From assembly GCF_037138995.1 (NCBI RefSeq), contig NZ_JBAXHI010000063.1, positions 1 to 13,064 on the forward strand: DNA of 13,064 bases, given 5' to 3'. Positions 1-13,064 of this stretch are shown one piece after another. A model generated the notes under the pieces. The model did no database searches. It was not told the origin of the DNA and worked only from the letters and a program-made list of their open reading frames with translations. Each line of letters starts with the position of its first letter. Positions within the stretch are counted from its first letter, which is position 1. This DNA comes from Candidatus Chlorohelix sp. (GTDB lineage: Bacteria; Chloroflexota; Chloroflexia; Chloroheliales; Chloroheliaceae). A program made the position numbers and the translations under genes.

Positions 1-4
1 GGGA

Positions 5-32
5 CAAAAAAAGGGCTAGGGGGATTAGCCCT
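5..32 (-). terminator. Rho-independent terminator on the minus strand: 7-bp stem AGGGCTA/TAGCCCT (plus 12-18 with 26-32), 7-nt loop, then a T6-7 tract (plus A-run 6-12).
   Basis: Seen directly. Minus-strand reading is AGGGCTAATCCCCCTAGCCCTTTTTTTT. It lies 19 nt downstream of a minus-strand TAA at 51-53. Confidence 0.45.
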
Positions 33-50
33 AACCTTTTGGGATTGCCT

Positions 51-185
51 TTAGCTGGCGCTGGCTTGTTCGCTCAGCGCCTTGCTCAAATAAGCGGCAT
101 ATTGCTCATTTGTGATAGCGCCATAGCGGATAATTTGCCTGTTCTTTGCGGGGAAGTGGGAGGTTTTTGTTTGGGGTGGCGCATC
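51..185 (-). pseudogene. Possible 3' gene remnant: 44 in-frame codons (…NRQIIRYGAITNEQYAAYLSKALSEQASAS*) with no start codon, ending just upstream of the terminator.
   Basis: Open frame on the minus strand bounded upstream by an in-frame TAA. No ATG or RBS. The only support is the well-formed terminator immediately 3'. Function unrecognisable. Confidence 0.2.
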
Positions 186-360
186 TTATCGCAACCCAGA
201 GGTTGCTCCTACAAAGCCCGAACCCTGTACGAGCGACATCTGGGTCGCGATTTCTCGCCCTTTTATTTATTTGTTTACTTGATATTTACCATAATTTAAT
301 TAGATAATTTAATCAATTCGCTCTATAATATTTAAGGATTGTAAAATGTATGTGCTATAA

Positions 361-933
361 AGAGATTATAAAGGTTACAGTGGGCTAGAGTCTGAAAAGC
401 ATCAGTGGTGCTGGGCGCATTTAATTCGGGATTTCAGGCGAATGAGTGAGCGAGCAGGAGGAATATGGGGCGAAGAGGCTTTGGAGTTAAGTGGGTAGGT
501 ATTTGAGGAATGGCGGGAGTATCGCGAAAGTGAAGGGGAAATGAGCCTGGCGGAGTTGAAAGCAGCCTTGGGGTCAATTAGAGCTGACTTCAAACAACTC
601 TTAAAAGAAGGAGAAACGCACCCTGATAGGGCGGTAAAGAGTTTGAGCAAAGAGCTAAACAAAGCCGAGGCTAGTTTGTGGGTATTTAGTGAGGTGGTTG
701 GGGTGGAACCGACCAATAATGCCGCCGAGAGAGCTTTGCGACCTGCGGTAATTTGGCGAAAGACCTGTTTTGGGTCTCAGAGTGAAGGTGGGTTGCGGTT
801 TGTGGAGCGGATGTTGACGGTGGCAGCCTCCCTCAAGCAGCAAGGGCGAGATTTGATTGAATTTATAACTCAGGCTCTTCGGGCCAAATGGTTTGGTCTG
901 CCTGTTCCTAGTTTAGTCCAAGCTTGTGCCTAG
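361..933 (+). pseudogene. IS66-family transposase (TnpC-like), C-terminal ~190 aa only. 5'-truncated and interrupted by an in-frame TAG at 496-498.
   Basis: The translation contains …DYKGYSGLESEKHQWCWAHLIRDF… and …EPTNNAAERALRPAVIWRKTCFGSQSEGG…SLKQQGRDLIEFITQAL…, which match the conserved IS66 TnpC motifs GY.GY / CWAH.RR.F and DNN.AER.IRP..GRKN.LF.GS..GG…N..P..YL. The frame opens only at 361, directly after AT-rich non-coding DNA. The TAG at 496-498 splits the frame. The ORF track reports only the 541..933 piece. Confidence 0.6.
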
Positions 934-994
934 CAATAGCCCCGTGAACGGTTACTCCGAATATCTATCGGTTTATAAAACTTTACAAAATCAA

Positions 995-1822
995 TCAACC
1001 TTCATCTTCCTCAGTCGGGATAGTGGTGTCGTTGTCAATAACATTATCATTCGTAGTAGCAACTAGATTATCAGAGTCAGAAGTATCAGTAACGTGATTA
1101 ACTCCAGCTATAATCCAGCCTACACCCTTATTGGGAAAGTGATCCAACTGATTCTGCACTTGGCTGCCCACACTGGCATTGACCGAAGCGTCTAAGGGTC
1201 CTAAGTTCTCTAAATCATCAGTTCCCCCGAACTGTCTATCTATCTTATGGTCAAGTTGCTGATTTTTTTCTAGGGTTTCGTTTGTTTCTTTTTCGTACAA
1301 GGCTCTTAAATTGTTGTTACGTGGCAATTGCTCATTTATAGTCAGATTTTGACCATTTTCTATACTTTCATTATAGTAACCCACCTTTTTTTGAGCTTCG
1401 GCTTTTTGATAGTCCGTCCATGCCTGTTTGTCCTTTACGTTCAAAACAAAAGCGGCAAAGCTCTCTTCATTTTTTCTTAGGTTAGCTTTTTCTTTTTCTT
1501 CCTCTGTTGGTTCATCCATACTGAACACTACTTCGTCTCTATCGGCATCAGTTATTATGGTAGGGTTTGCTTTGTCCTGCTCTTCGGCTTGCCAAATTTG
1601 AAAGTTTGCCCGGATTTTATCCGGGTCTTCAAAAGTATTATTAATATTGTCCAAAATACGTTTCTGAAAAGCGGGATGAACACCTGCTTCTTCTAGGGAG
1701 GCAATAAATTTTTGCTTTAGTTGTGTACCTGTATTAGCATCTCCAGGGATTTGCAACTTTTCTTCTTCACTGAAGCAAGAATCATCTTTATCCTCATCCG
1801 ACTGTTCATAACGTTTCTTCAT
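995..1822 (-). CDS. Highly acidic hypothetical protein (~275 aa, D/E/N/Q-rich, no recognisable domain); last gene of the operon.
   Basis: Long ORF. The preferred start is the internal ATG at 1822 (MKKRYEQ…), which sits 3 nt after the TAA stop of the upstream gene (1825-1827) with GAGGA 5 nt upstream. The track's longer start at 1897 would overlap the upstream gene by 73 nt. Composition is strongly acidic. Function unknown. Confidence 0.6.
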   Translation of the reverse strand: MKKRYEQSDEDKDDSCFSEEEKLQIPGDANTGTQLKQKFIASLEEAGVHPAFQKRILDNINNTFEDPDKIRANFQIWQAEEQDKANPTIITDADRDEVVFSMDEPTEEEKEKANLRKNEESFAAFVLNVKDKQAWTDYQKAEAQKKVGYYNESIENGQNLTINEQLPRNNNLRALYEKETNETLEKNQQLDHKIDRQFGGTDDLENLGPLDASVNASVGSQVQNQLDHFPNKGVGWIIAGVNHVTDTSDSDNLVATTNDNVIDNDTTIPTEEDEG

Positions 1823-1824
1823 TT

Positions 1825-4800
1825 TTATCCTCTGAGTATGGCTGCTATTAACATAAATATACCAAGTACCAGATCCAGTGGTAGGGTAATACACCAAAGC
1901 AAAAGTATCCCTATACCCAAGAAAAACGAAGCCAGGATTGAACGTGGTATAACTTCAAATGCGATTGGTACTGTCATAGGTGGCTGTCCACTGAGTTGTA
2001 TCTGTATCGGAATAATCTGATGACCAGGCGGGCGCAGTGATCTTACATACCCGCTAGTGATAAAAACTCTTTCCCAGATAGTGGTTTGTAGTGAAAAAGA
2101 ATAATTTAAAGTTTGACCACCAAAAGAGGCAGTTGGAGCTAAGATGGTGCTAAAAGAAAAGCCTTCCTGCCCAGGATTTTGTACCGTAACAGTGGTGTAA
2201 CCACCCTGCCCATTACCGTCGCGGCCCATATTTAAAAGTGTTAAAGTTCCGGTGATTATATCGCCTGTGCGTATTGTTGACTGATAATTCAACTTTGCCT
2301 GAATAGACGAAGTTGGTAAATTCGTGTCGCAGTTGCGCAGAAATATCTCTACCACTTCATTTTGATAAAGCTTATTCATATGGGCATCACTACCAATATA
2401 CTGATTCTGCTGCAAGGATTTTGAGGACATTATAGCTTGCTGTTTCAGACGTTCGTTGCGTAATCCGTACTCAAACCATCGAGCAAGTTCACCAGAGGAA
2501 AGATGATGGGGAATCTCGTTCCAATGGCAACGATCTACCGCTGCGATAAAATCTCCCAGTGTCGAGGCTTGTTCGGGTGGGGCAGTAAACTCAAATGGCG
2601 CTCTGGCTTTGATGTTGTATTGCTGTGGTAAACTGGCGACCTCCGGCAGTGGTGTGGCAGGTGGCGGAGTGCTGGTAGGTAATTGCTTATTATAATCGGC
2701 ACGTAGCGCAGGATCCAGCAAAATTCTTTCGGCTTCCTGTAAATACGCCAGCTTACGATTTGCATCATCCTGATCCTCTGGAAAGGGGGAGGTTTGTTGC
2801 TCTTGAAGCTGTTGGCGGGTATGTGCAATGCGTTGGCGAATGAAGTGTTCGCTGGCATCACGTTCTGCCTCGATAAGTTCATAGTAGTTACAAGCCGGAT
2901 TAGATGTAGCTGAGAGTGGCTGCGCTATTGCTTCTGGTGGTGTTTCTACACCAACTATAGAGGCGCGGATAGAGTCTCCATTCTTTCTGATTTTATCTTG
3001 CAGCTCTGTGCGAACATTCGCCAAATTTTTGCTACAATATTCTTCTATCATCTTTTGCGCTTCTTGTGTTTCAGGATCTATATAACTAAAATTGGTTATT
3101 GACCTCCATTCGTCAGGGGGGTTGTTTTTATATAACTTATCCCTAAGCTTATTGGAAGCTGCCAACCCGATTCCCTTGATTATTCCCAATGTTAAATAGC
3201 AAACTATGACCGCCACTAACGAGAAAGCACCTGGAGAATAAGTATAATAAGAATAATGGGGGTGTACAGCTGTATTAAGAGATGCGGTTGCTACCCCAAC
3301 CACTATCATAGGAAACAAAAAGCCTAGCCATGTTGGAATTGCCAGAGTAGCCATGTTTCCTATGCTGAAAAGCGTATATGCAAGCAATCCAAAGAGTAAA
3401 CTACCGGGTATTTCGAGCCATTTATAATTTACCATGTCAAAAATCGCAGCGCTTACACCAACAATGACTGCTAAGACCATGCCTATTACCAAGTTAGCCC
3501 AGCCAAAAGTTAATCCCCAGCGTTTTATGGCGTAGTTAGGGCTATATTTTTCCGGTACTATTTGAACCGAAATTGAAAAGGGATAATTACCAGAAGGTGT
3601 TTCCAACAAAAGTTTGAAATCATTGTAGCGGCTGTTATAGCTCAACTTTGAGCTATCTATTTCAATCATCAAAACAGTATCGCCCTCAATAGCAATACTA
3701 TCCAAACCTCGTACCGAACCGTCTGCATAGCCTAAACGAACTGGACGTTGCGTATTGGTACTCCGAAGAGTACCGTAGAAATAACCACGTCCCTGCCGAG
3801 CAATTTTCAGCAAGCGGTAAAATGGTTGGCGTGTGCGATCTAATGGGCCTAAATTCAGCGCTCCAGTCGGTTGAAACTCTCCTTCTAATCCCATAGCCAA
3901 TAATGGTTGGGGATGAGGTAACATTGGATTAAGCACATGAATAACTTGCTCCAATAATATCCGGCTACTGGAACGGGAATTTCGAATGAGGTCAGCCACG
4001 TTGCGGGCTATGATTCCATCTACCTGTTGCAGCCACTCTACTAGGATACTACCTCCTGGGCTTCGCAAGAGATAAACGGCTTCTTGTGCAGTGCTATCTG
4101 CCAAAACCGAAATTTCTTGAGCGGATGAAGCATAGCGACCTGATCCTAGAACTAGAAGAGGCTTACAATTGAGAGTACGGAGTGGTGCATGCTCCATTAC
4201 TAGCCACCAATAAAAACGGTGAAGGGTAAAACTCCAGTCATTATTGCACTGCCCGACGATTTCTAGGAAACGCTTGCGTGCTATTGCATCTGCTACCCCA
4301 TAACGTAGCCACCCATCCATGTTACCATTACTGCACGCCTGTAAAGCATCTTCCCAACTTTCGGGAGCCATTTGCACCAAATCTACTAGGTCAGCGGCAC
4401 TGTGTATGCCAAGTTGCAAATTACCTATACTGGCTTTAGCCAACGTTTGATTGTATTGTTCGCGTTGTTTAGGGTCTAACAGTTTTGGCAACAACTGATC
4501 CAAAAAACGAATCTTTTCCCTAGCACGTTGCGCAGTCAGGGCATCCACACTTTCGGCAGTTTGGTTTAGAGTTGCGTAAATGCGGCTGTAAGCAGTTTTT
4601 ATTTCTTCTGCACTGGCAGAAGGATTCACACTTAGAATCTCGTAGTAATTACGGGCATGCTCCATCTGGTCGAGTAGCTTGCGCCCGTCTATGTGCTGGA
4701 AGTTATCACCATAACGATGCACGGCTTGCCCGACCCCGGTTTCATGTAAACCGCCTAAGCCGGACTGGTTAAGACCGCCCAAATAACCTTGCCCATTGGA

Positions 4801-4833
4801 AGGTTCCTCAGGTAGCGGATAGGTTGTATTCAT
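1825..4833 (-). CDS. Large polytopic membrane protein (1002 aa) with two J-domain-like modules lacking HPD, a central ~4-helix TM bundle and a C-terminal TM hairpin.
   Basis: J-like module 1 is aa ~60-131 (nt ~4441-4656): NYYEILSVNPSASAEEIKTAYSRIYATL…AREKIRFLDQLLPKLLDPKQREQYNQTL. J-like module 2 is aa ~648-718 (nt ~2680-2892): NYYELIEAERDASEHFIRQRIAHT…ANRKLAYLQEAERILLDPALRADYNKQL. Both follow the J-domain helix I-II and helix III patterns (YYEILGV…EIKKAY… / …AYEVLSDP.KRA.YD), but neither has HPD. Hydrophobic segments lie at aa ~438-558 (nt ~3160-3522) and aa ~966-1000 (nt ~1833-1936). A P/T-rich linker is at aa ~719-735. SD GGAGAGGAAG ~10 nt upstream of the ATG. Confidence 0.8.
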   Translation of the reverse strand: MNTTYPLPEEPSNGQGYLGGLNQSGLGGLHETGVGQAVHRYGDNFQHIDGRKLLDQMEHARNYYEILSVNPSASAEEIKTAYSRIYATLNQTAESVDALTAQRAREKIRFLDQLLPKLLDPKQREQYNQTLAKASIGNLQLGIHSAADLVDLVQMAPESWEDALQACSNGNMDGWLRYGVADAIARKRFLEIVGQCNNDWSFTLHRFYWWLVMEHAPLRTLNCKPLLVLGSGRYASSAQEISVLADSTAQEAVYLLRSPGGSILVEWLQQVDGIIARNVADLIRNSRSSSRILLEQVIHVLNPMLPHPQPLLAMGLEGEFQPTGALNLGPLDRTRQPFYRLLKIARQGRGYFYGTLRSTNTQRPVRLGYADGSVRGLDSIAIEGDTVLMIEIDSSKLSYNSRYNDFKLLLETPSGNYPFSISVQIVPEKYSPNYAIKRWGLTFGWANLVIGMVLAVIVGVSAAIFDMVNYKWLEIPGSLLFGLLAYTLFSIGNMATLAIPTWLGFLFPMIVVGVATASLNTAVHPHYSYYTYSPGAFSLVAVIVCYLTLGIIKGIGLAASNKLRDKLYKNNPPDEWRSITNFSYIDPETQEAQKMIEEYCSKNLANVRTELQDKIRKNGDSIRASIVGVETPPEAIAQPLSATSNPACNYYELIEAERDASEHFIRQRIAHTRQQLQEQQTSPFPEDQDDANRKLAYLQEAERILLDPALRADYNKQLPTSTPPPATPLPEVASLPQQYNIKARAPFEFTAPPEQASTLGDFIAAVDRCHWNEIPHHLSSGELARWFEYGLRNERLKQQAIMSSKSLQQNQYIGSDAHMNKLYQNEVVEIFLRNCDTNLPTSSIQAKLNYQSTIRTGDIITGTLTLLNMGRDGNGQGGYTTVTVQNPGQEGFSFSTILAPTASFGGQTLNYSFSLQTTIWERVFITSGYVRSLRPPGHQIIPIQIQLSGQPPMTVPIAFEVIPRSILASFFLGIGILLLWCITLPLDLVLGIFMLIAAILRG

Positions 4834-4861
4834 TTATGAAAGGCTTCCTCTCCAAAAATAA

Positions 4862-5173
4862 CTATGAATCCCAGCCCATTTGTTTTCTGATATGCTGGTG
4901 ATACGCTTCCAAAGAACCATACTCCTTGTTTATACGGCGCGTATTTTCCTCTATCGCGTCTAATTCTTTATTCCAGGCTGAACCCCAGCCCTCATCAAAG
5001 CGGGGTATAGGGTGTTCTGATGGGTCGAAGCCAGAGTCGTCCCAATCTCCCTTCGGTGACACACCATAATCGTTCGAGGGTTCAGGATCCGTTTCCAACT
5101 TCTCGTCTTCTGTTATTTCCTGCTCTAACGGTTGGTCTGAAATCTGGTCGTCTTGATCTTCCTGCAAATCCAT
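4862..5173 (-). CDS. Small, highly acidic hypothetical protein (103 aa).
   Basis: ORF with a strong SD (AAGGAGAG, plus 5178-5185) 4 nt upstream of the ATG. It sits 18 nt after the upstream ATPase gene and 28 nt before the next gene. Strongly D/E-rich. No recognisable domain. Confidence 0.6.
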   Translation of the reverse strand: MDLQEDQDDQISDQPLEQEITEDEKLETDPEPSNDYGVSPKGDWDDSGFDPSEHPIPRFDEGWGSAWNKELDAIEENTRRINKEYGSLEAYHQHIRKQMGWDS

Positions 5174-5191
5174 AGAACTCTCCTTTTACAA

Positions 5192-8100
5192 TTATTTGGG
5201 AGCTGAAGACTCTTTCTGAGTACTAAATTCCACCATCAAGATTTCGAAAGCACGCGCGTGATAGTCTGACAATAACGTTTTTACTTTTAAAGCATCTTGC
5301 GGGTTGTCTTCCAAGTAAAGCGCACCCATATAAGCTTGAGCGCAATAGCTACTATTCAATTGGAGCATACTAGATGGTTCGGTCAAGTTATAACCCATCT
5401 GTGCAGTTACTCGTTTGATAGCTTTCCCATACTCAGGCCAAACTGAGCTAGGCAAACCGTCCGGTTGGGTGCTTTTAACAGCTTTTGCAAAAGCGATCAT
5501 AAACTCCTGACGGGCAAATTTTGGCAAAGATTTGATCAAAGCCTGAAAAAGACAGTGTCTGGAAGCATTCCAAACGGAACAATGCGTGCAGGTTGGATAA
5601 GGCGCAACCCCCGATTTACCGGGTGTGGTTTTGGGTTGGGGTGCTGCTGGAACAAAAGGTAGGTAACTGCCAAAACTGTGGTCGGGTAGCTTCGTGGCTG
5701 TCAAGCTACGAATACCTGAGTCATCAATAATTGCCAATTTGTTCAAATCATCTATAAGATTGGGCACACCTAGATGAACCGGTCCGAAGGCGCTACCCAC
5801 CAGCAAATGTCCGGTTTGAAGGTTACGAGCATAATCAGTTTGACGTTCATCCAGATTGAGCAACTGACTGTACAATTGGAAACTGTCGGGGTCCTCCAAC
5901 CGATGCATCAATTTCAAATTGCTATTGCCAATAGCTCCTTGAATAAGATTTACCGGCATCTGTTCGGCTATGATAATGCCTTCGCCAAAGCCCCGTACTT
6001 CTGCCAATAGGTTACTGAAGTCTTCACCCGCTGCTCCTTGGGGACTAGCATGGTCCTGGTTAGCCTGGTTATGCCGAGCCATTACCCGGTGCGCTTCTTC
6101 AACTAACGTTACATGCAACTGTTCAGGACGATGGTGTTCAATATACTCGCTGACCAGAACTAGCAGCATACCCATAATCAAGGCTGTATCCTGAGGGGAA
6201 CCAACCCGTCCTATTTCCATTATCACCGGACGTTTCATCATATCTCCGATCTCTATCGAAGACCGTTCCACATTAACCACGCTCCCGGCAGTAGCTATCA
6301 GATCGCGTATGCGAATTTCCGTGGCTTGCTCAATACTGCTCTGGGTTTCTTTGCCGTATTGAAGAGAAGCAGTTTCATTTTGTAAAGCAGCGTAAAACTC
6401 CGTAAAGTTCGGGGCAGGTGGGCTGTCCGGACCTCCCTTGCCTGTTTCAATATTCCAGCCCTTGTTCTCGTAACACTTGCGTAGCGCTGCCCGGTAAATG
6501 GCAGGAAGTGGGTCCCACATTGTAAAAGCGGCATTAAAGCAGCGCATCAGACGACTAATATGCTGTTTCAATAAGACCTTGTCTCCTACTGCAAAGGGAT
6601 TGAAGCGGAATGGTGCAGTAGTTTCATCTCCCAAGGTAAAAACCAATAGATCGAGACAAATAGGTCGACGTTGCACCTCATTCCCAAAATAAAATGCAAA
6701 CTGCTCATTACTCAAGCCATCCAGATTAGCTAGGCTGCGGTAATCCGGTTTGTCAATTGGATAAATCACCAAGAAGGGAATACGATATTTAAGCCAGAGT
6801 TGGGATAGCAGATAAAGACAGGTATTGGTTTTGCCGCTGCCGGTTGTGCCAGAAATCAGAGTGTGGCGAGCAAACTGACTCCAGGGCAGTCCAAAATCTT
6901 CGCCTGTGGACTGACCACGGTGAATAATGTTGCCCAATTTTACACTGTTTTCAATGAGAGAAGACCCCTCTTGCTTTGTCTGTTCATAGCGTGGGGCTAC
7001 AAACGGCTCATCTTTCACTACTACACCAGCCATAAACCCGCTGGCAGGTGGAACAGGTAGCCGAAAAGCGCCGCAGGCTTCTGTGGCAGTAACAATGTAG
7101 CGCAACCGCTCCAGACCAGGCGCTGAAAGGGTAGCCCCCCAAGGGTACTGTTCAAGATAGCGCAAGTTATTGAGTGCAATAGCATGATCGTTGGTTTTTA
7201 CCGGGTCGAACAACTGCCACTGGGTGGGGTAGTCATTTACAGTATTGTTCATACACTCGGAACCGAGTGCTTCCGCTACCGCAGCAGGTGCGCTTTTTTC
7301 ACCGGCAATTTGGATTTTCAGCAAGAAAGTATGGTTTTGTTCTTTTACTAGTTGCGTGTAAACCCAACGTCCTACCCTAGAGCGAAAGACCAGATAAGCG
7401 TTATCGGTGGTAGCTCTTATTCTGTCTTCTCGCTCTAGCACCCTTGTCATGTCATCAAAACGCTGGGCTGCGCCGTTGAGATAAAGGATTTCATCGGCGT
7501 AGAGTGAGGTAGGACGCAAACAAATACTTACCACAGTTCGCTCTTTTTGAGTCGCAAGAGCTTCAAAAAATCGGCTCATCGCACTGAAATCCAGCGATGG
7601 AACCAAAGGATGAACAATGTAATCACCCACCTCCTCCCGCCGTCCTAACCCCATAGCGCTGGTGCGAATCGGTAAGTCCTCAAACTTGCGAATTTCCAAC
7701 AATGTTCCTGGCTCTTTGAGGGCTGCGTACCAGTTAGCGTCCCCAAAAATTTCAAGAAAAGAAGCTTTGTCTGTCAGGGGTTTGAGAGGATAATTAAAAG
7801 GATCCTCAAGAGGGAAATTAGCAGAAAATTTAGCCCACAAGCGCAAAGAGACATCTCTAGCAGTCTTATAATCCGGGTCAAAAACTTTACAAACAAAGGC
7901 TATCCGTATTTTCCCCAGTTTGCCGGGAATAGTACTCGGTTGTTGGATAAAACGTAACTCGTAAGTAGCTTGTTTCTCGCGAAAGGTGGAAATATCATAG
8001 ATGAAACGAATTTGCCGTTTTACAACTTTTCCAATTCTGGAGTCGGCAAAGTCGTTACCACGAAAGCTAGGAATAAAAGGAACTTCGGCTGCCCAAAAAA

Positions 8101-8206
8101 TATGCCAGCCATCAAAGGGTTGGTGTTGTACTCCTTTTTTATCGGCATAACCTGTTTCTATATAGGCAGCTTGTTTTACTTCGTATAGGTAAGGTGTGCT
8201 GAGCAT
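5192..8206 (-). CDS. HerA/FtsK-superfamily P-loop ATPase (1004 aa) with a ~450-aa N-terminal domain of unknown function and a C-terminal Cys/His cluster.
   Basis: Walker A TLISGTTGSGKTNT at aa 450-462 (nt 6827-6850 encode SGTTGSGK). Walker B HVTLVEEAHRV at aa 698-708 is the hhhhEEAH form typical of HerA/DUF87-type ATPases. A sensor-like IIIAEQMPVNL…NSNLKLMHRL follows. A single P-loop domain spans aa ~430-830. No N-terminal TM segments. C-terminal CTHC-x7-HC at aa 873-885 could bind zinc. Confidence 0.8.
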   Translation of the reverse strand: MLSTPYLYEVKQAAYIETGYADKKGVQHQPFDGWHIFWAAEVPFIPSFRGNDFADSRIGKVVKRQIRFIYDISTFREKQATYELRFIQQPSTIPGKLGKIRIAFVCKVFDPDYKTARDVSLRLWAKFSANFPLEDPFNYPLKPLTDKASFLEIFGDANWYAALKEPGTLLEIRKFEDLPIRTSAMGLGRREEVGDYIVHPLVPSLDFSAMSRFFEALATQKERTVVSICLRPTSLYADEILYLNGAAQRFDDMTRVLEREDRIRATTDNAYLVFRSRVGRWVYTQLVKEQNHTFLLKIQIAGEKSAPAAVAEALGSECMNNTVNDYPTQWQLFDPVKTNDHAIALNNLRYLEQYPWGATLSAPGLERLRYIVTATEACGAFRLPVPPASGFMAGVVVKDEPFVAPRYEQTKQEGSSLIENSVKLGNIIHRGQSTGEDFGLPWSQFARHTLISGTTGSGKTNTCLYLLSQLWLKYRIPFLVIYPIDKPDYRSLANLDGLSNEQFAFYFGNEVQRRPICLDLLVFTLGDETTAPFRFNPFAVGDKVLLKQHISRLMRCFNAAFTMWDPLPAIYRAALRKCYENKGWNIETGKGGPDSPPAPNFTEFYAALQNETASLQYGKETQSSIEQATEIRIRDLIATAGSVVNVERSSIEIGDMMKRPVIMEIGRVGSPQDTALIMGMLLVLVSEYIEHHRPEQLHVTLVEEAHRVMARHNQANQDHASPQGAAGEDFSNLLAEVRGFGEGIIIAEQMPVNLIQGAIGNSNLKLMHRLEDPDSFQLYSQLLNLDERQTDYARNLQTGHLLVGSAFGPVHLGVPNLIDDLNKLAIIDDSGIRSLTATKLPDHSFGSYLPFVPAAPQPKTTPGKSGVAPYPTCTHCSVWNASRHCLFQALIKSLPKFARQEFMIAFAKAVKSTQPDGLPSSVWPEYGKAIKRVTAQMGYNLTEPSSMLQLNSSYCAQAYMGALYLEDNPQDALKVKTLLSDYHARAFEILMVEFSTQKESSAPK

Positions 8207-8255
8207 CTCTTTTATTCCGCCTACTATGTAATAGTTTTGATTAGCCGCATTTGTA

Positions 8256-9626
8256 TCAAGACAGGCGTGCCTCTAGATATTCGATTACTTCCCGTATTTC
8301 ACTTTCAATTGTCCACTCTTCCGGGTCTAGCAAGGTACACTCGATATTTGCCGACTGATTTTGTCCCTCTACCAGCACTTTTTGTAGAATAGGTGGAACT
8401 GCCGGGTAATCGGAGCCACATAACAAGCATACATAAGCTTGTCGCCCAGAAGAACGTAATTTGAAGTTTACTTCCACCAACCTTTTACCGGTGAGCATGC
8501 CGTTTGGACTGCGTTCCGGGGCATCGTTCGCATCAAGCACATAACTTAATTTTTTCAGCCGGGTTATTGCTTGCACAAAAGAAATACCCTCAGATTTTTC
8601 AGTCGGTGTACTGTTGAAAGCATTTGCACTGAAAGGCACTTGACCAGAGTCCTGTTGGTTTGTCTCAGCGCCAGTAGGCTGGCTAAAACCTCCAGGCGAC
8701 TGGGCATACCCGGTACCCTGTGCCGGTTCAGTTGGCAGATAGTGATTTGGCGCGGGTTGGAAAGCGTTAGGGGCATATTGGTTAGGCATAAAACGGTTTA
8801 CTGGAGCATTAAGATAATCCATACCGCCTCCGCCCATTTGCTGAATAATCTGGGGAGCAATTGCTTGGACATTTTGTTGACCATAGATAAGACTACCGTA
8901 AGTTATTGGAGCGTCGTAGGTAAGATCAATATGCTCACGAGTACCGGCAGCTTGCTCGGTAGCGGTACTAATGGTATTGGGTTGCTTGATCTCAGCTATA
9001 GTAATGTGTTCAACCAGTAAGCCAATGGAATATAAACGAGAGTCTTCGGTCAATGTGCTACGAATGAGGTGGTCTACGTCCACACGGCTAAATAACAGGT
9101 CATGATAATCACAGCGCCCAAAAGCTCGGCGGGTAGCCTGAGTAACACAATCCCGCAACGTTTTAGGAGCCGAAAAAGGGTTACTGCGGATGAAGCGATC
9201 TACCCCAGAATCGCCCCGTACACTCAGCACTTTGTTATCTACCCGAAAATTAACATTAAGGGTTATGGATAACTCGATAGGTTTACCGGAACGTGGCTCT
9301 TGACCATAATGGTTGGTTCTGCCAGTAAATTCATTGTGTACCGCATTAAATTTATCAGCAATCTGAATGCTTTCCTGCCGAGTATTCACAAGGACGAAGC
9401 GAATCTTGGAGTGAAAACCTGGTTTGGCTACACGATGACAGCCTGGCGGTAGAATAGCCCACAATTGATGATTTACATAAACCACCCCTGCCGTATTAGG
9501 TTCGATTTCAACCCCAGCGTTATTAAACAACCAAGACCAAAACCCAACTTCGTTAGTCTCGTCCCGTAAAATTAATACCGGTTCGGAGTTGTATGAGGGT
9601 GAAGGAATATTAGGATAGTTGCTCAT
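8256..9626 (-). CDS. Fusion protein (456 aa): N-terminal SPFH/band-7 (stomatin/prohibitin-like) domain, low-complexity G/Q/P/N/A-rich linker, C-terminal UBC/RWD-like (E2-fold) domain.
   Basis: SPFH-like, aa ~35-216 (nt ~8979-9524): VEIEPNTAGVVYVNHQLWAILPPGCHRVAKPGFH…IELSITLNVNFRVDNKV…TLRDCVTQATRRAFGRCDYHDLLFSRVDVDHLIRSTLTEDSRLYSIGLLVEHITIAEIKQP. This aligns with the HflK/stomatin pattern V.EGE.GVV.RFGK…L.PGLH…V.VD.VV.YRV.DP…TLR.V.G….ELL..R..I…L…WGI.V..V.I.DI.PP. Linker aa ~255-345. E2-fold, aa ~346-456 (nt ~8259-8591): FVQAITRLKKLSYVLDANDA…GRQAYVCLLCGSDYPAVPPILQKVLVEGQNQSANIECTLLDPEEW. Compare UBC …GG.F.L.I.FPEDYPFKPPKV.F.T.I.HPNI…G.ICLDIL…W. The HPN triad is degenerate (QNQ). A Cys is present in the ECTLL position. 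Strong SD AAGGAGA (plus 9636-9642). Confidence 0.75.
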   Translation of the reverse strand: MSNYPNIPSPSYNSEPVLILRDETNEVGFWSWLFNNAGVEIEPNTAGVVYVNHQLWAILPPGCHRVAKPGFHSKIRFVLVNTRQESIQIADKFNAVHNEFTGRTNHYGQEPRSGKPIELSITLNVNFRVDNKVLSVRGDSGVDRFIRSNPFSAPKTLRDCVTQATRRAFGRCDYHDLLFSRVDVDHLIRSTLTEDSRLYSIGLLVEHITIAEIKQPNTISTATEQAAGTREHIDLTYDAPITYGSLIYGQQNVQAIAPQIIQQMGGGGMDYLNAPVNRFMPNQYAPNAFQPAPNHYLPTEPAQGTGYAQSPGGFSQPTGAETNQQDSGQVPFSANAFNSTPTEKSEGISFVQAITRLKKLSYVLDANDAPERSPNGMLTGKRLVEVNFKLRSSGRQAYVCLLCGSDYPAVPPILQKVLVEGQNQSANIECTLLDPEEWTIESEIREVIEYLEARLS

Positions 9627-9657
9627 TAACCTGAATCTCCTTTTTCTTTAGCCAAAG

Positions 9658-11211
9658 TTAAACACGCAATCGAATTTCACCTTGTACACTGCGCTCATAT
9701 TTAGGCGCTTCCGCTACTGCTTCCAACAACCCATCAGCCCGACAGCGAATAAAGACATTGACCTCGGTCTGGGCTGGTAAATTAGGTAAATCGAACTGAA
9801 GCTCCCCTATAGTAATACACTGGGACAGTTCCGGTGTGTCACCTTGTACCAGAGAAATAACTGCCCCACCAGGGGTATTAGTGTGGTATTGGCGACTAGA
9901 CCAGTTTTGCATGGGCAGTGGGGTGCCCCTTGATAAAATTATGCTGTTAAAGTCCGGCCCATTCGGTCTGGAGGCTACTACCCCGATTGAATAAGGCAAA
10001 ATATCACTCACCTCTAGTCCGCCCAATTCATTACGTACAGCCTCACTTACTCCACCGAGGCGACCTTGGCGACCCTGACTATCCTGTTTGCTTTCTTCTT
10101 CAACTTTGATTTTGCCTGCCATCAATGCGGCACCATGCGCCACTGCTTTATCCGGATTTAGAGCGCTGTTAACTTTCTCTTTGCCAAACTTTCCGCATAG
10201 TCGTTCCCTTACTAAGGGAATACGGCTACTTCCTCCTACCAATAAAACTAGGTCGATTTGCGAAGTCGAAAGTTGCGCCTTTCCGATAGCTTGATCCATC
10301 TTTGTTTCTGCTCGAATAAGCGCCCCCTCAATCAGGCTGTTAAAAGTATCTCGGTTGAGATTTATCTGGTAAGATCTTCCCAACAAATTCAGTCGTAGCG
10401 TTGTTTCATGCCGATTGTGACCGCTCAGCTCTACTTTAGCCTGCTCTGCCCGGCGGCGCAGCTCAAAAAATTCCTGAGGGCCAAAACTGCGACGATCTAC
10501 CTGATGTTGAGAAGCCAGTTGTTGGGCGATATAGCCGATAATAGCTTCATCAAAATCTTTCCCCCCCAGTCGGTTATCGCCATCAGTTGCGAGTACCCGT
10601 ACTCTCCACCCACCGCTTGTTCCGGGTTCCATTCTTAAAATAGTCGCATCGAAAGTGCCTCCTCCTAGGTCATAAACTGCTACATTTTGAGCTACAGGCT
10701 TACGTCGCGCGGTATAATCCAGCGCGGCAGCCGTTGGTTCCGAAACCAACATTATAGAGTTGAACCCAGCTTTTTCCCCTGCTTTACGTGTACGCTCTTT
10801 CCCGCATGCGGTCATATTGGCGGGTACTGTAATAACCACCTGCTCTACAGGTTCATTTACTTCAAACTCTGCTGCTATTTTCAAACCTTTAAGGATTTCG
10901 GCGCTAATGTCTTCCGGTCTATATTGCTGATTGCGAAACTGTCGGACATATTGATCATTTTGATCACCTATCCTGCGTTTTATAAATTCTTCTACTCCTT
11001 TGGGATTAAAAAAACCAAGCTCAACAGCTTCCTGTCCAACCAGAATACGATTTTGGGCTTCATCGAAAAAAACCACGCTTGGCGTTGTATCCTGTCCATT
11101 GACAGATATAATCTCAGGCTTGCCCAGATCGTCTAGGCGTGCGATAGCTGAGAAAGTTGTGCCTAAATCAATACCTACGATCAAAGTTCTACCTCCTAAG
11201 ATTAAGTTCAT
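9658..11211 (-). CDS. Hsp70-family ATPase (517 aa): full actin-like nucleotide-binding domain plus beta-sandwich substrate-binding domain, with the helical lid essentially absent.
   Basis: Hsp70 signatures are present: IVGIDLGTTFSAIA (phosphate-1), VYDLGGGTFDATIL (phosphate-2), LVGGSSRIPLVRERL (adenosine), LVSEPTAAALDY. The C-terminal aa ~400-510 (VSDILPYSIGVVASRPNGPDFNSIILSRGTPLP…AVISLVQGDTPELSQCITIGELQFDLPNLPAQTEVNVFIRCRADGLLEAVAEA) aligns with DnaK SBD-beta (DV.PLSLGIE…IPTK…V.I.V.QGER…N..LG.F.L.GI.PAPRG.PQIEVTFDID.DGIL.V.A). The protein ends ~10 aa after this, so there is no SBD-alpha lid. Confidence 0.88.
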   Translation of the reverse strand: MNLILGGRTLIVGIDLGTTFSAIARLDDLGKPEIISVNGQDTTPSVVFFDEAQNRILVGQEAVELGFFNPKGVEEFIKRRIGDQNDQYVRQFRNQQYRPEDISAEILKGLKIAAEFEVNEPVEQVVITVPANMTACGKERTRKAGEKAGFNSIMLVSEPTAAALDYTARRKPVAQNVAVYDLGGGTFDATILRMEPGTSGGWRVRVLATDGDNRLGGKDFDEAIIGYIAQQLASQHQVDRRSFGPQEFFELRRRAEQAKVELSGHNRHETTLRLNLLGRSYQINLNRDTFNSLIEGALIRAETKMDQAIGKAQLSTSQIDLVLLVGGSSRIPLVRERLCGKFGKEKVNSALNPDKAVAHGAALMAGKIKVEEESKQDSQGRQGRLGGVSEAVRNELGGLEVSDILPYSIGVVASRPNGPDFNSIILSRGTPLPMQNWSSRQYHTNTPGGAVISLVQGDTPELSQCITIGELQFDLPNLPAQTEVNVFIRCRADGLLEAVAEAPKYERSVQGEIRLRV

Positions 11212-11574
11212 TTATTCAGGAACTTACTTCAACCATTCCATCGGCGTGATTTCCTTATCCGTCAGTACGTAGGGTTTCGTACACAATAAGGTCTATTTCC
11301 ATTATGATACAGCTAAACGTTACTGAAAGCTTATTTCCAGTTGAATTGGGAAAAAACGACTCGTACTAACTTGAAGTTACTTGATAAATATTACACCAGA
11401 ATTGCAACTAAAGTTTGTAGCATTTTAAACATTAGTTTGAGCAATTTTCGGCACATATTTGAGATTTGGTCAATCTGCAATACGTTGCATGTTCACCTGT
11501 TTGGTGGCTTAACCCAGATAGGATTATTAACAAACTGACCTTGACCGAAATAAGCTTAAATTACCCGTAACCGC

Positions 11575-12882
11575 TCAAACCATTTGGATAAGTTGCTCCC
11601 AAAATGGGGTTATATCACGATTTATCAAATCCTGAGCTTTTGGTAAACACGCTGGGTTCAAGGTAATTTCTGAGATAGAATTCTGCCCAGTAAAAACCTT
11701 TAGAATCTGAGCTTGCGCTAATATCCCCACTATTTTTTCAAAATCGGCGTTACGAACCTTCTCCTGTAAAATCCCTACTGATATTGTTTTACTACCTACC
11801 AAACCATAACCTAGCAGGTAAATTAGAAATTTACGGATGAATTCCGCTTTTGGATGAAGAGTAACGGGTACAACCAGCGGGTTTTCTGTTAGAATAATCT
11901 CCTCTACTACTTTTTTTGTTTCTTCGCTTTCTTCTGCAAGAACTACTTCAGTTTCTGAGGATGAGTCATTTATTAAAGTGGTATACACCACGATGTTAAT
12001 AACTGGTTTTAAGCAAGTAACCTGTGTTATGGAACAAGTTAGAGTAACCCCCTCTGTAGTAGCAGTAGAGCTAAACCGATTTGCCAGAACCTCTTGCACA
12101 ACATTTGCTACCTCACGTGACCCTGTGTATTCTCCTACCAATTCAATGATGCTCAGGTTATTCCAAATTGAGGGGCGCAAGTCAGAAATAGACCAGTATT
12201 CCTGACCAATAAGACTAAAAATCCCGTCATACACTAGGTTTCTCAGGTTTTCTAGAAAGTTCTTTACAACAGGTATAATGTCCTGAAGTTCATCTGGAAC
12301 CGGGAGCAAAAAAGCATAGCCTGTTGGATTTTCGGTAGGAGCAATCACTAACTCAAGATGCACTTCATCATTTGTTATCAAATCTTGTTGTTGGGCAAGT
12401 ATCTCCATATAAGACTGTAACTGAGCTCCACGGTTCTCTTGTGCCACTAGCAAGATAGAGTGATAAGATGCAGGTAGAGATTGTAATATTGTGTCACGGT
12501 TCTGTGCAAACTGTTGGTAATCATGTAATTTCCTCTCAAGTTCCGGGTCTAAATGCAACAGTTGCTGTCTCTCCGTTTCCAGAATTGACTTCCTAAGAAA
12601 TCGTTGACCAGTGACAATAAGATTATCAAGGCAGTCCTGCATAGCTAATTTTAATTTTTCCTGCTCTTCCTGGTTAAGAGTTACGGTTTGTATAGCAAGT
12701 TCCTGCTGCAAACGAACTATATGTGCTTCTTTTATCCTCATGTCACGCTGTAATATTTCAAACTGTGCAACCAAAGAACTCATTTTTGACTGCTCTGTTT
12801 GCAGTTCAATTTCGAGCGATTCCATACGTTCGTGCGCATTATTTCTCAGTAAAGTAAGATTTTCACGTAAAGAGTTAGACAT
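11575..12882 (-). CDS. Coiled-coil protein (435 aa): N-terminal ~130 aa Q/E/L-rich predicted coiled coil, C-terminal domain unrecognised.
   Basis: Long ORF. The ATG abuts the TAG stop of the upstream partial ORF (TAGATG junction). Heptad-like L/I/Q/E periodicity in aa 1-130 (nt ~12493-12882). No catalytic motifs recognised. Confidence 0.7.
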   Translation of the reverse strand: MSNSLRENLTLLRNNAHERMESLEIELQTEQSKMSSLVAQFEILQRDMRIKEAHIVRLQQELAIQTVTLNQEEQEKLKLAMQDCLDNLIVTGQRFLRKSILETERQQLLHLDPELERKLHDYQQFAQNRDTILQSLPASYHSILLVAQENRGAQLQSYMEILAQQQDLITNDEVHLELVIAPTENPTGYAFLLPVPDELQDIIPVVKNFLENLRNLVYDGIFSLIGQEYWSISDLRPSIWNNLSIIELVGEYTGSREVANVVQEVLANRFSSTATTEGVTLTCSITQVTCLKPVINIVVYTTLINDSSSETEVVLAEESEETKKVVEEIILTENPLVVPVTLHPKAEFIRKFLIYLLGYGLVGSKTISVGILQEKVRNADFEKIVGILAQAQILKVFTGQNSISEITLNPACLPKAQDLINRDITPFWEQLIQMV

Positions 12883-12885
12883 CTA

Positions 12886-13064
12886 TACCTTCAATTCTAC
12901 TGGAATATCACCCATTAAAGTGGTTATCGGTTCCGCAGTTGGTATTCTAAATGAACCAAGTTGACGCACTACTGTTGCAATCAAACTTTTCAGAGAATCA
13001 TAGGCTAGTCTTAGAGTAATTCTGAAAACTAGGTCAAGGCGAAAGTTTACAAAGCCTTTTGAAA
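12886..13064 (-). CDS. 3' end (>=59 codons) of a further upstream operon gene that runs off the window.
   Basis: The minus-strand frame is open from the window edge to the TAG at 12883-12885 (…FRIPTAEPITTLMGDIPVELKV*). The stop is immediately followed by the ATG of the 435-aa gene, consistent with translational coupling. No start in window, so function unknown. Confidence 0.4.

Follow-up and report, generated by a model that had tools for sequence, protein, structure and literature searches.

An SPFH protein with a C-terminal RWD/UEV-like domain and a HerA-like ATPase are the constant parts of a mostly Chloroflexota gene system

A stretch of 13,064 nt from Candidatus Chlorohelix sp. (contig NZ_JBAXHI010000063.1, positions 1 to 13,064; hereafter the window) encodes a 456-amino acid (aa) protein in which an N-terminal SPFH domain is joined through a long linker to a C-terminal domain of the RWD/UEV type. 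This SPFH-RWD protein and the HerA/FtsK-like ATPase of about 1000 aa encoded next to it are the constant parts of a conserved, mostly Chloroflexota, multi-gene system, in which the remaining genes are exchanged between an Hsp70/J-like set and an E1/E2/JAB set. Taken together, the data make it rather probable that the protein is an anchor-less SPFH scaffold with a tethered, non-catalytic RWD/UEV docking domain, and a core subunit of a conflict/defence or stress system built on the HerA-like ATPase.

Domain architecture of the SPFH protein

The 456-aa open reading frame (ORF) begins with ATG and fills positions 8256-9626 exactly on the minus strand, as seen from the ORF list and the translation; the same interval read on the plus strand contains many stops. 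A first-pass annotation, made from the letters of the window alone, had placed an ORF at these coordinates, which are correct, and left its strand unstated. The product is identical to the NCBI protein 'SPFH domain-containing protein [Candidatus Chlorohelix sp.]', from a member of the Chloroflexota, order Chloroheliales. The features of the gene are as follows.

8256..9626, minus strand: whole ORF of the SPFH-linker-RWD-like protein (456 aa plus stop; ORF list and translation)
9637..9642, minus strand: putative Shine-Dalgarno sequence AAGGAG, 10 nt 5′ of the ATG (read from the sequence only)
8946..9509, minus strand: SPFH/Band-7 domain, aa 40-227 (Pfam PF01145)
8598..8945, minus strand: low-complexity linker, aa 228-343 (composition)
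8259..8597, minus strand: C-terminal RWD/UEV-like UBC-fold domain, aa 344-456, the last 113 residues (predicted helix, four strands, loop, helix)
8418..8420, minus strand: Cys403, four residues N-terminal of the motif Tyr (Cys in 26/28 family members)
8391..8408, minus strand: YPAVPP motif, aa 407-412, the YPxxxP or 'PP flap' signature between strands 3 and 4 (family alignment, hhalign)
8337..8339, minus strand: Cys430 in ECTLL (aa 429-433), positional equivalent of the E2 catalytic Cys (UBE2S alignment)
8313..8315, minus strand: Trp438, which opens the C-terminal helix 8 residues past Cys430 (invariant in 28/28)

The N-terminal half is a genuine SPFH domain, as had been proposed in the first-pass annotation. 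Pfam Band_7 (PF01145) matches aa 40-227 with E=2.2e-7 and 31.5 bits, against a curated gathering cut-off of 23.6. A profile made from aa 1-235 of the window protein aligned with eleven full-length orthologs recovered HflK (1.9e-13), stomatin (~1e-6) and QmcA (2e-5) from the PDB, so that the domain is found by both kinds of search. The protein is not an ortholog of HflK, since it scores only 18.1 bits with the NCBIfam hflK equivalog model (TIGR01933), for which the cut-off is 159.4. A membrane anchor, either an N-terminal transmembrane helix or a hairpin, is typical of HflK/C, stomatin and flotillin but does not strictly define SPFH proteins. No transmembrane helix was detected in the 456 aa; the highest 19-residue Kyte-Doolittle mean is 0.97 and lies inside the C-terminal domain. 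By hydropathy, the target is thus an SPFH protein devoid of the usual membrane anchor, cytosolic or peripheral.

The linker (aa 228-343) has no Pfam match. Its core (aa 250-340) is 60% G/Q/P/N/A and 5% charged, a composition in agreement with the disordered, G/Q/P/N/A-rich linker described earlier, and the whole segment of about 115 residues is predicted to be disordered.

The C-terminal domain is difficult to detect with a single sequence. The isolated C-terminus matched nothing in Pfam even at E<=10. An exhaustive HMMER (phmmer) search of the last 117 aa against 1.84 billion representative proteins returned only the protein itself and three repeat proteins, which were judged from their sequences to be spurious. 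In word-indexed searches with the whole protein and in a 5-sequence profile search, only the protein itself and an Oscillochloris ortholog were obtained from an index that misses divergent relatives. All the motifs quoted in the first-pass annotation, YPAVPP, ECTLL and Trp438, are present, and its alignment to E2 enzymes holds weakly: in phmmer against PDB sequences UBE2S comes first at a non-significant E=0.14 and in the register proposed, with CLLCGSDYPAVPP on KLLLGKDFPASPP, Cys430 opposite the catalytic Cys and the YP..PP motifs in step.

Because the domain escapes such searches, synteny was needed to find its relatives. Reading the DNA round some homologs of the neighbouring HerA-like ATPase revealed SPFH genes whose C-termini could be aligned by eye with that of the window protein. 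A metagenome scan with the ATPase profile added 57 further loci, and a local hidden Markov model (HMM) search brought in about 20 more SPFH proteins that end in this domain, together with standalone proteins carrying it. The window domain is linked to this family by synteny and by a leave-one-out test: an HMM built from 27 related domains, with the window sequence left out, matches aa 375-450 of the window protein with 23.2 bits (E=8.8e-8 over 30 window ORFs). The resemblance is more than chance.

In the alignment of the 28 family members, the second Pro of YPAVPP is invariant, the first Pro is present in 27/28, and 28/28 have Tyr or Phe at the Tyr position. The further conserved features of the family are an invariant Trp, a near-invariant Cys-x3-[YF]-P-x2-[PA]-P motif and a P-F-[QE]-S-x-x-L-R-x-W block. 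The position equivalent to Cys403 is occupied in E2s by a buried Phe.

When the family profile was compared with PDB sequences, the double-RWD protein FANCL ranked first (6.6e-4), followed by VPS37A, MMS2/UEV1, UBE2Z, UBE2L3, the GCN2 RWD, RWDD1 and BRE; nearly all of the 60 matches listed are UBC-fold proteins. Pfam searches with each family member (E<=1) gave RWD for 20/28 (best E 2.9e-6), UEV (PF05743) for 6, UQ_con (PF00179) for 4 and Prok-E2_B for 2, and a standalone Oscillochloris paralog of the domain exceeds the RWD (PF05773) cut-off of 22.8 with 26.1 bits.

AlphaFold2 with the single sequence gave an unusable model (predicted local distance difference test, pLDDT, 39). With a 12-sequence alignment the model reached pLDDT 82.1 and a predicted template modelling score (pTM) of 0.72. 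It consists of a helix, a four-stranded antiparallel sheet, a loop and a single C-terminal helix, with YPAVPP between strands 3 and 4. The structure matches, with the values listed for them, include TSG101 UEV (9.8), Knl1 RWD (9.2), FANCL (9.0), Ubc12 (8.7), UBE2D3 (8.6), RWDD3 (8.5), UBE2S (8.2), Citrobacter BubB (8.1) and Cap2 (7.4), and nearly all of the best 60 belong to the UBC-fold superfamily. Foldseek agreed on the top families, with weak E-values (best 0.13). The predicted fold is therefore of the UBC type and not another one; as modelled, the C-terminal domain is a minimal UBC fold of the RWD/UEV kind.

Conservation of the fusion and its gene neighbourhood

An SPFH gene lies upstream of the HerA-like ATPase gene, on the same strand, in 22 of about 26 informative loci, those of the close HerA-like genes for which 5 kb or more of upstream DNA was available. 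Every SPFH gene of these 22 loci carries the RWD-like C-terminus; the SPFH-RWD gene is absent beside distant relatives of the ATPase (26-31% identity). The fusion, which the first-pass annotation did not recognise from elsewhere, is thus present as described there but is not an isolated case; the architecture is conserved in a whole family of proteins.

Among the SPFH-RWD orthologs, 16/24 end in Gly, typically as ...KQYFG (for example L013:3525-4799 and L016:3223-4446), and the window protein ends in ...ARLS. This Gly might serve as a signal for docking or activation. In the cyclic oligonucleotide-based anti-phage signalling systems (CBASS) the CD-NTase is an E1 substrate. A corresponding role of the Gly as a mark of an E1 substrate was considered and rejected, for it is mostly missing from the orthologs in E1-bearing loci and from the window protein as well.

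The ATPase of the window has 441 homologs; the best 120 of the 441 share 39-47% identity with it, almost all over 78-100% of the query length. Its profile matched a DUF87 protein (5.9e-11) and HerA chains in the PDB. The N-terminal region of about 400 aa contains many invariant residues and has no family match, and the C-terminal stretch is Cys-rich. One of the 441 homologs is annotated as coming from a Methanofastidiosa archaeon metagenome-assembled genome (MAG).

A scan of GTDB genomes with the HerA-like protein recovered no more than two loci, both distant and from Lachnospiraceae, where the neighbour is a dynamin and SPFH is missing. At one of them (L004, 8603-14443, a Lachnospiraceae MAG) the ATPase relative, 30% identical in the ATPase core, adjoins a dynamin-family GTPase, with neither SPFH nor Hsp70 genes; this is possibly a different system on the same motor. 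The idea of a phage-borne system was dropped, as a scan of viral contigs gave only distant relatives of the ATPase domain.

The genes preceding SPFH-RWD are of two kinds. An Hsp70 gene (511-524 aa; one product is incomplete at a contig end) is found in 17 loci, that of the window included. In 4 loci (L007, L034, L035, L039) a cassette of a ThiF-type E1 (E=4.5e-37), a CBASS-type E2 with a GHLCL motif and a Prok-JAB-like protein lies directly upstream of the SPFH-RWD and HerA-like genes. The two sets never occur together in the loci sampled. In the E1/E2/JAB version, of which the cultured Oscillochloris trichoides DG-6 provides an example (L007; GL501402.1, 1-12811), the cassette takes the place of the Hsp70 and J-like proteins and is accompanied by several extra RWD-like proteins. 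The RWD-like domain occurs there in 4-6 different proteins per locus, among them a transmembrane-anchored 236-aa protein (Pfam RWD E=1e-5), TPR proteins with the domain at the N-terminus and a JAB protein with it at the C-terminus. No gene for a ubiquitin-like protein (Ubl) or a CD-NTase was recognised in these four loci.

At one locus of the family, on an Anaerolineae contig (L005, 14412-22997), genes for PglZ, a PDDEXK nuclease, BrxL and McrBC come directly after the system, a defence-island setting. The J-like domains of these systems have the canonical HPD in 1/79 cases; most carry LVTHHDP and are fused to double zinc ribbons, and paralogs of them form arrays of up to about eight per locus (L005, L006, L010, L016-L018 and other loci).

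In the window, seven large ORFs between positions 995 and 12882 all lie on the minus strand. With the target gene described above, they and the adjoining insertion sequence remnant are, in the order of transcription:

11575..12882, minus strand: 435-aa protein without recognisable domain, at the head of the apparent operon (no match in Pfam, PADLOC or PDB)
9658..11211, minus strand: Hsp70-family protein (517 aa), upstream neighbour, 31 nt from the SPFH gene (Pfam HSP70 E=8.6e-84)
5192..8206, minus strand: HerA/FtsK-like ATPase (1004 aa), downstream neighbour, 49 nt from the SPFH gene (Pfam DUF87/HerA, PADLOC HerA/mad8)
4862..5173, minus strand: acidic protein of 103 aa, encoded between the ATPase and J-like genes (no matches)
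1825..4833, minus strand: 1002-aa membrane protein with J-like domain(s), without HPD motif (Pfam DnaJ, aa 62-128, E=3.4e-7)
995..1897, minus strand: 300-aa protein, last gene of the operon (no family or structure match)
541..933, plus strand: IS66-family transposase fragment beside the operon end (matches only the C-terminal part of the Pfam model)

The common strand and the gaps of 31 and 49 nt fit an operon. Besides membrane segments, the 1002-aa protein has two J-like segments (about aa 62-128 and 648-720), from which both HPD and HHD are missing. Searches of PDB sequences with the 435-aa and 300-aa proteins and with the single ATPase sequence gave nothing useful. Homologs of the 435-, 103- and 300-aa proteins were not found in related loci, save for one marginal match of the 300-aa protein (E=9e-4), and these genes appear to be specific to the version of the system in the window lineage. 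Only the ATPase has matches among the PADLOC models, and none was obtained for the SPFH, Hsp70 or J-like genes. A protease or NfeD gene adjoining the SPFH gene was not detected in the window by Pfam.

Catalytic competence and role of the RWD-like domain

The first-pass annotation had noted a Cys at the E2 active-site position with a degenerate HPN, and had left two options for the domain: an inactive ubiquitin-binding or UEV-like adaptor, or a conjugating enzyme whose Ubl and E1 lie outside the window. The position of Cys430 stands by the UBE2S alignment, and the residue itself is not conserved. Over the 28 sequences its column contains 21 Ser, 4 Pro and one each of Cys, Ala and Thr, the sole Cys being that of the window protein. 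The HPN motif is absent from 28/28 sequences, the window protein reading ...EGQNQSANIEC... and the orthologs ...DGE..PFQS.... A Ser-x-His arrangement of the BubB type is also missing, as no His is found two residues after the Ser/Cys column (S-A-V-L, C-T-L-L).

Comparison by hhalign of the family with the E2s of the sister loci aligned only the beta2-beta3-YPxxPP core (P=2.5e-4), with the YPAVPP block on 'YPxxFPNEPP' of these genuine enzymes, and stopped before the catalytic loop. The model ends after one C-terminal helix and lacks the two helices with which E2s end. Neither the operon, the window nor the 14.9 kb of contig read showed an E1, Ubl or JAB gene, and the window locus has no DUF6527 gene; E1/E2/JAB genes were found beside the orthologs in the four sister loci, all of which encode a separate E2 with the GHLCL catalytic Cys. 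In the SPFH orthologs of these E1-bearing loci the Cys430 column is Pro in 3/4 and Ser in L034.

With no HPN, an unconserved Cys430, a single C-terminal helix and no E1, Ubl or JAB gene in the 14.9 kb of contig read, the RWD-like domain of the window protein is probably non-catalytic, and of the two options the inactive adaptor is favoured. Inactive domains of the E2/RWD-like kind were already described from bacteria by Iyer et al. 2006 (PMC1779556).

An active conjugating enzyme, working through a Cys430 thioester or an oxyester on the Ser of the orthologs with E1 and Ubl encoded elsewhere in the genome, is improbable. Cys430 does fall on the catalytic Cys of UBE2S, the 8-residue spacing from Cys to Trp is that of canonical E2s, a Ser/Cys alternation (Ser 21, Cys 1) can typify a nucleophile position, and the orthologs in four loci adjoin E1, E2 and JAB genes; moreover, the Cys-less E2-likes of the Bub pathway act through Ser333/His335 (PMC11601596). 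However, both HPN and the BubB Ser-x-His are missing, and three of the four SPFH orthologs encoded beside an E1 have Pro in the column, at loci that possess their own Cys-bearing E2. An E1 is within reach in 0/17 of the Hsp70-type loci, neither the window nor the part of the contig read contains E1, Ubl or JAB genes, the catalytic loop cannot be aligned to real E2s and the C-terminal E2 helices are missing.

A domain that binds without catalysing could instead be a UEV-like reader of a Ubl or modified protein made elsewhere, bringing tagged proteins to the SPFH/HerA machine. Binding of Ubls by bacterial RWD-like inactive E2 domains was proposed by Iyer et al. 2006 (PMC1779556), and the E1/E2/JAB cassettes of the sister loci would suit such a reader. 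This explanation is less improbable than an enzyme and is still unlikely, since in most loci (17), that of the window included, the protein is paired with Hsp70 and J-like proteins and not with conjugation genes, and a Ubl gene was not recognised even where E1, E2 and JAB are encoded. A housekeeping regulator of a membrane protease, similar to HflK/C or stomatin, with a tail of no specific role and with unrelated neighbours, is the least credible of the alternatives. HflK is the best PDB match of the SPFH profile and there is a weak NCBIfam hflK match (18 bits), but this is far under the equivalog cut-off of 159, no protease or NfeD gene adjoins, and the tail is a conserved folded domain. The missing membrane anchor and the conserved linkage to the HerA-like ATPase, in 22 of about 26 loci, already contradict it.

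We return to the scaffold with a docking domain. RWD and UEV domains are protein-binding modules, as in GCN2-GCN1, FANCL-substrate, the kinetochore RWDs and TSG101-Ub/PTAP interactions. The best support for an adaptor role is that the domain recurs in several different proteins encoded at a single locus, as a module for assembly shared between them would. The SPFH domains, like those of HflK/C, stomatin and QmcA, would oligomerise into a ring or cage scaffold, onto which the tethered RWD-like domains may dock the variable protein-handling module of the system. In the window the recruited module would be the Hsp70 with the J-like membrane protein, and in the sister group the E1/E2/JAB cassette with the further RWD-like proteins; in either case it would thereby be coupled to the HerA-like motor.

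The system as a whole is probably a conflict/defence or stress-response device. The partner modules are swapped (Hsp70/J-like in 17 loci, E1/E2/JAB in 4) and the J-like/zinc-ribbon arrays are diversified, both of which suggest a conflict system. The same is indicated by the PglZ/BrxL/McrBC neighbours in one locus, the IS66 fragment beside the window operon and the PADLOC HerA/mad8 matches of the ATPase.

Several observations weigh against this interpretation. Oligomerisation of the SPFH domain is assumed from other families, and the window locus has a single RWD-like domain, so that the argument from a shared module is drawn from the sister loci. The window domain is also the most divergent member of its family (14-26% identity, no Pfam RWD match at E<=1). 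The defence context comes from few loci, and PADLOC has no SPFH, Hsp70 or J-like models. As to the lack of catalysis, the loop round Cys430 is of low confidence in the AlphaFold2 model (mean pLDDT 58, model residues 81-90), and the P-F-[QE]-S-x-x-L-R-x-W block at the E2 active-site position is the most conserved feature after YP..PP. E2-likes of the Bub pathway once called inactive proved to be catalytic through Ser (PMC11601596). Catalysis by BubB involves Ser-x-His plus Asp (Ser333/His335), in proteins fused to or adjoining Ubl and E1 (PMC11601596).

Significance and comparison with known systems

Neither an SPFH-RWD fusion nor this gene cluster, with its fixed HerA-type partner and its exchange of chaperone and ubiquitin-like modules, was found described in full-text searches, which miss many subscription papers. 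The Hsp70/GTPase systems of Kaur et al. 2020 and the ESCRT-linked SPFH systems were considered and are different from the SPFH-RWD/HerA system. The cluster is thus apparently undescribed, and its parts (SPFH, RWD/UEV, HerA, Hsp70/J and E1/E2/JAB) are each well known. The fusion in the window points to a conserved and apparently uncharacterised system whose SPFH/HerA core is accompanied at some loci by a chaperone module and at others by a ubiquitin-like one.

A bolder proposal, which we regard as tentative and more doubtful than not, is that SPFH-RWD and the ATPase of about 1000 aa are the core of an undescribed class of prokaryotic conflict or protein-surveillance systems. Hsp70, with HHD J-like/zinc-ribbon arrays, and the E1/E2/JAB module would then be interchangeable targeting front ends, docked through RWD domains to an SPFH cage. 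Bolder still, the conserved F-[QE]-S site (Cys in the window) might be a Bub-like nucleophile, to judge from its conservation pattern. If true, the proposal would mean that the coupling of SPFH scaffolds with J-proteins/Hsp70 and ubiquitination seen in eukaryotes has a precedent in bacteria.

If the docking model is right, it would offer a tractable bacterial system for studying how SPFH cages recruit client-handling machinery, and would lend weight to the emerging view that, before eukaryotes, folds of the ubiquitin system already served as adaptors in conflict systems of prokaryotes. A large divergent family, at present annotated as 'SPFH domain-containing', hypothetical or unnamed, would also become open to re-annotation.

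Among known proteins, HflK/C, stomatin and QmcA share with the target a genuine SPFH domain in its N-terminal half. They differ in possessing the N-terminal transmembrane or hairpin anchor and, usually, a long C-terminal coiled coil, in place of which the target has the Q/P/G/N-rich linker and the RWD-like domain. The genomic partner of the target is a HerA-like ATPase with Hsp70, and not a protease or NfeD. Eukaryotic erlin (SPFH) complexes at the endoplasmic reticulum work with transmembrane J-proteins, Hsc70 and ubiquitin ligases, and one study reportedly connects erlins to the B12 J-protein (PMC5484543). The likeness to these complexes (SPFH scaffold, membrane J-protein, Hsp70, ubiquitin components) would be one of analogy only, with homology seen only in the shared domains.

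The eukaryotic RWD/UEV domains (FANCL DRWD, GCN2, RWDD1/3, Knl1, TSG101/Vps23), which are the best profile and structure matches of the family, have in common with it the alpha-beta4-alpha fold of UBC type and the YPxxxP motif, without a conserved catalytic Cys. In contrast to them, the window domain is bacterial, fused to SPFH and shorter, with a single C-terminal helix, and its family has signatures of its own, namely the near-invariant Cys that precedes the motif Tyr by four residues and the P-F-[QE]-S-x-x-L-R-x-W block.

The inactive E2/RWD-like domains of 6E/Bub operons (PMC1779556; Ye et al. 2024, PMC11601596) resemble the target domain as prokaryotic UBC folds devoid of the E2 Cys, in operons with E1 and JAB genes, which for the target's family holds in the sister loci. 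The Bub E2-likes are fused to Ubl or E1 and have the Ser-x-His pair, whereas the target family lacks that His and has a variable Ser column, and the window locus is without E1, Ubl, JAB and DUF6527 genes. Likeness to the Cap2/Cap3 modules of type II CBASS and to the E1-E2-JAB modules of Bil is confined to the four sister loci, with their ThiF E1, CBASS-type E2 and JAB-like protein. A CD-NTase or Ubl gene was not seen in those loci, the window locus has no such cassette, and the domain attached to SPFH is distinct from the E2 of the cassette.

The HerA-based anti-phage systems (HerA-SIR2, HerA-DUF4297, PADLOC mad8) share with the window operon the HerA/FtsK-type ATPase, as seen in its PADLOC HerA/mad8 and HerA PDB matches. 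Unlike theirs, the ATPase of the window is about 1000 aa long, its N-terminal part (about 400 aa) is unassigned and its C-terminus Cys-rich, and its partners are SPFH-RWD and Hsp70/J-like proteins rather than SIR2 or a nuclease.

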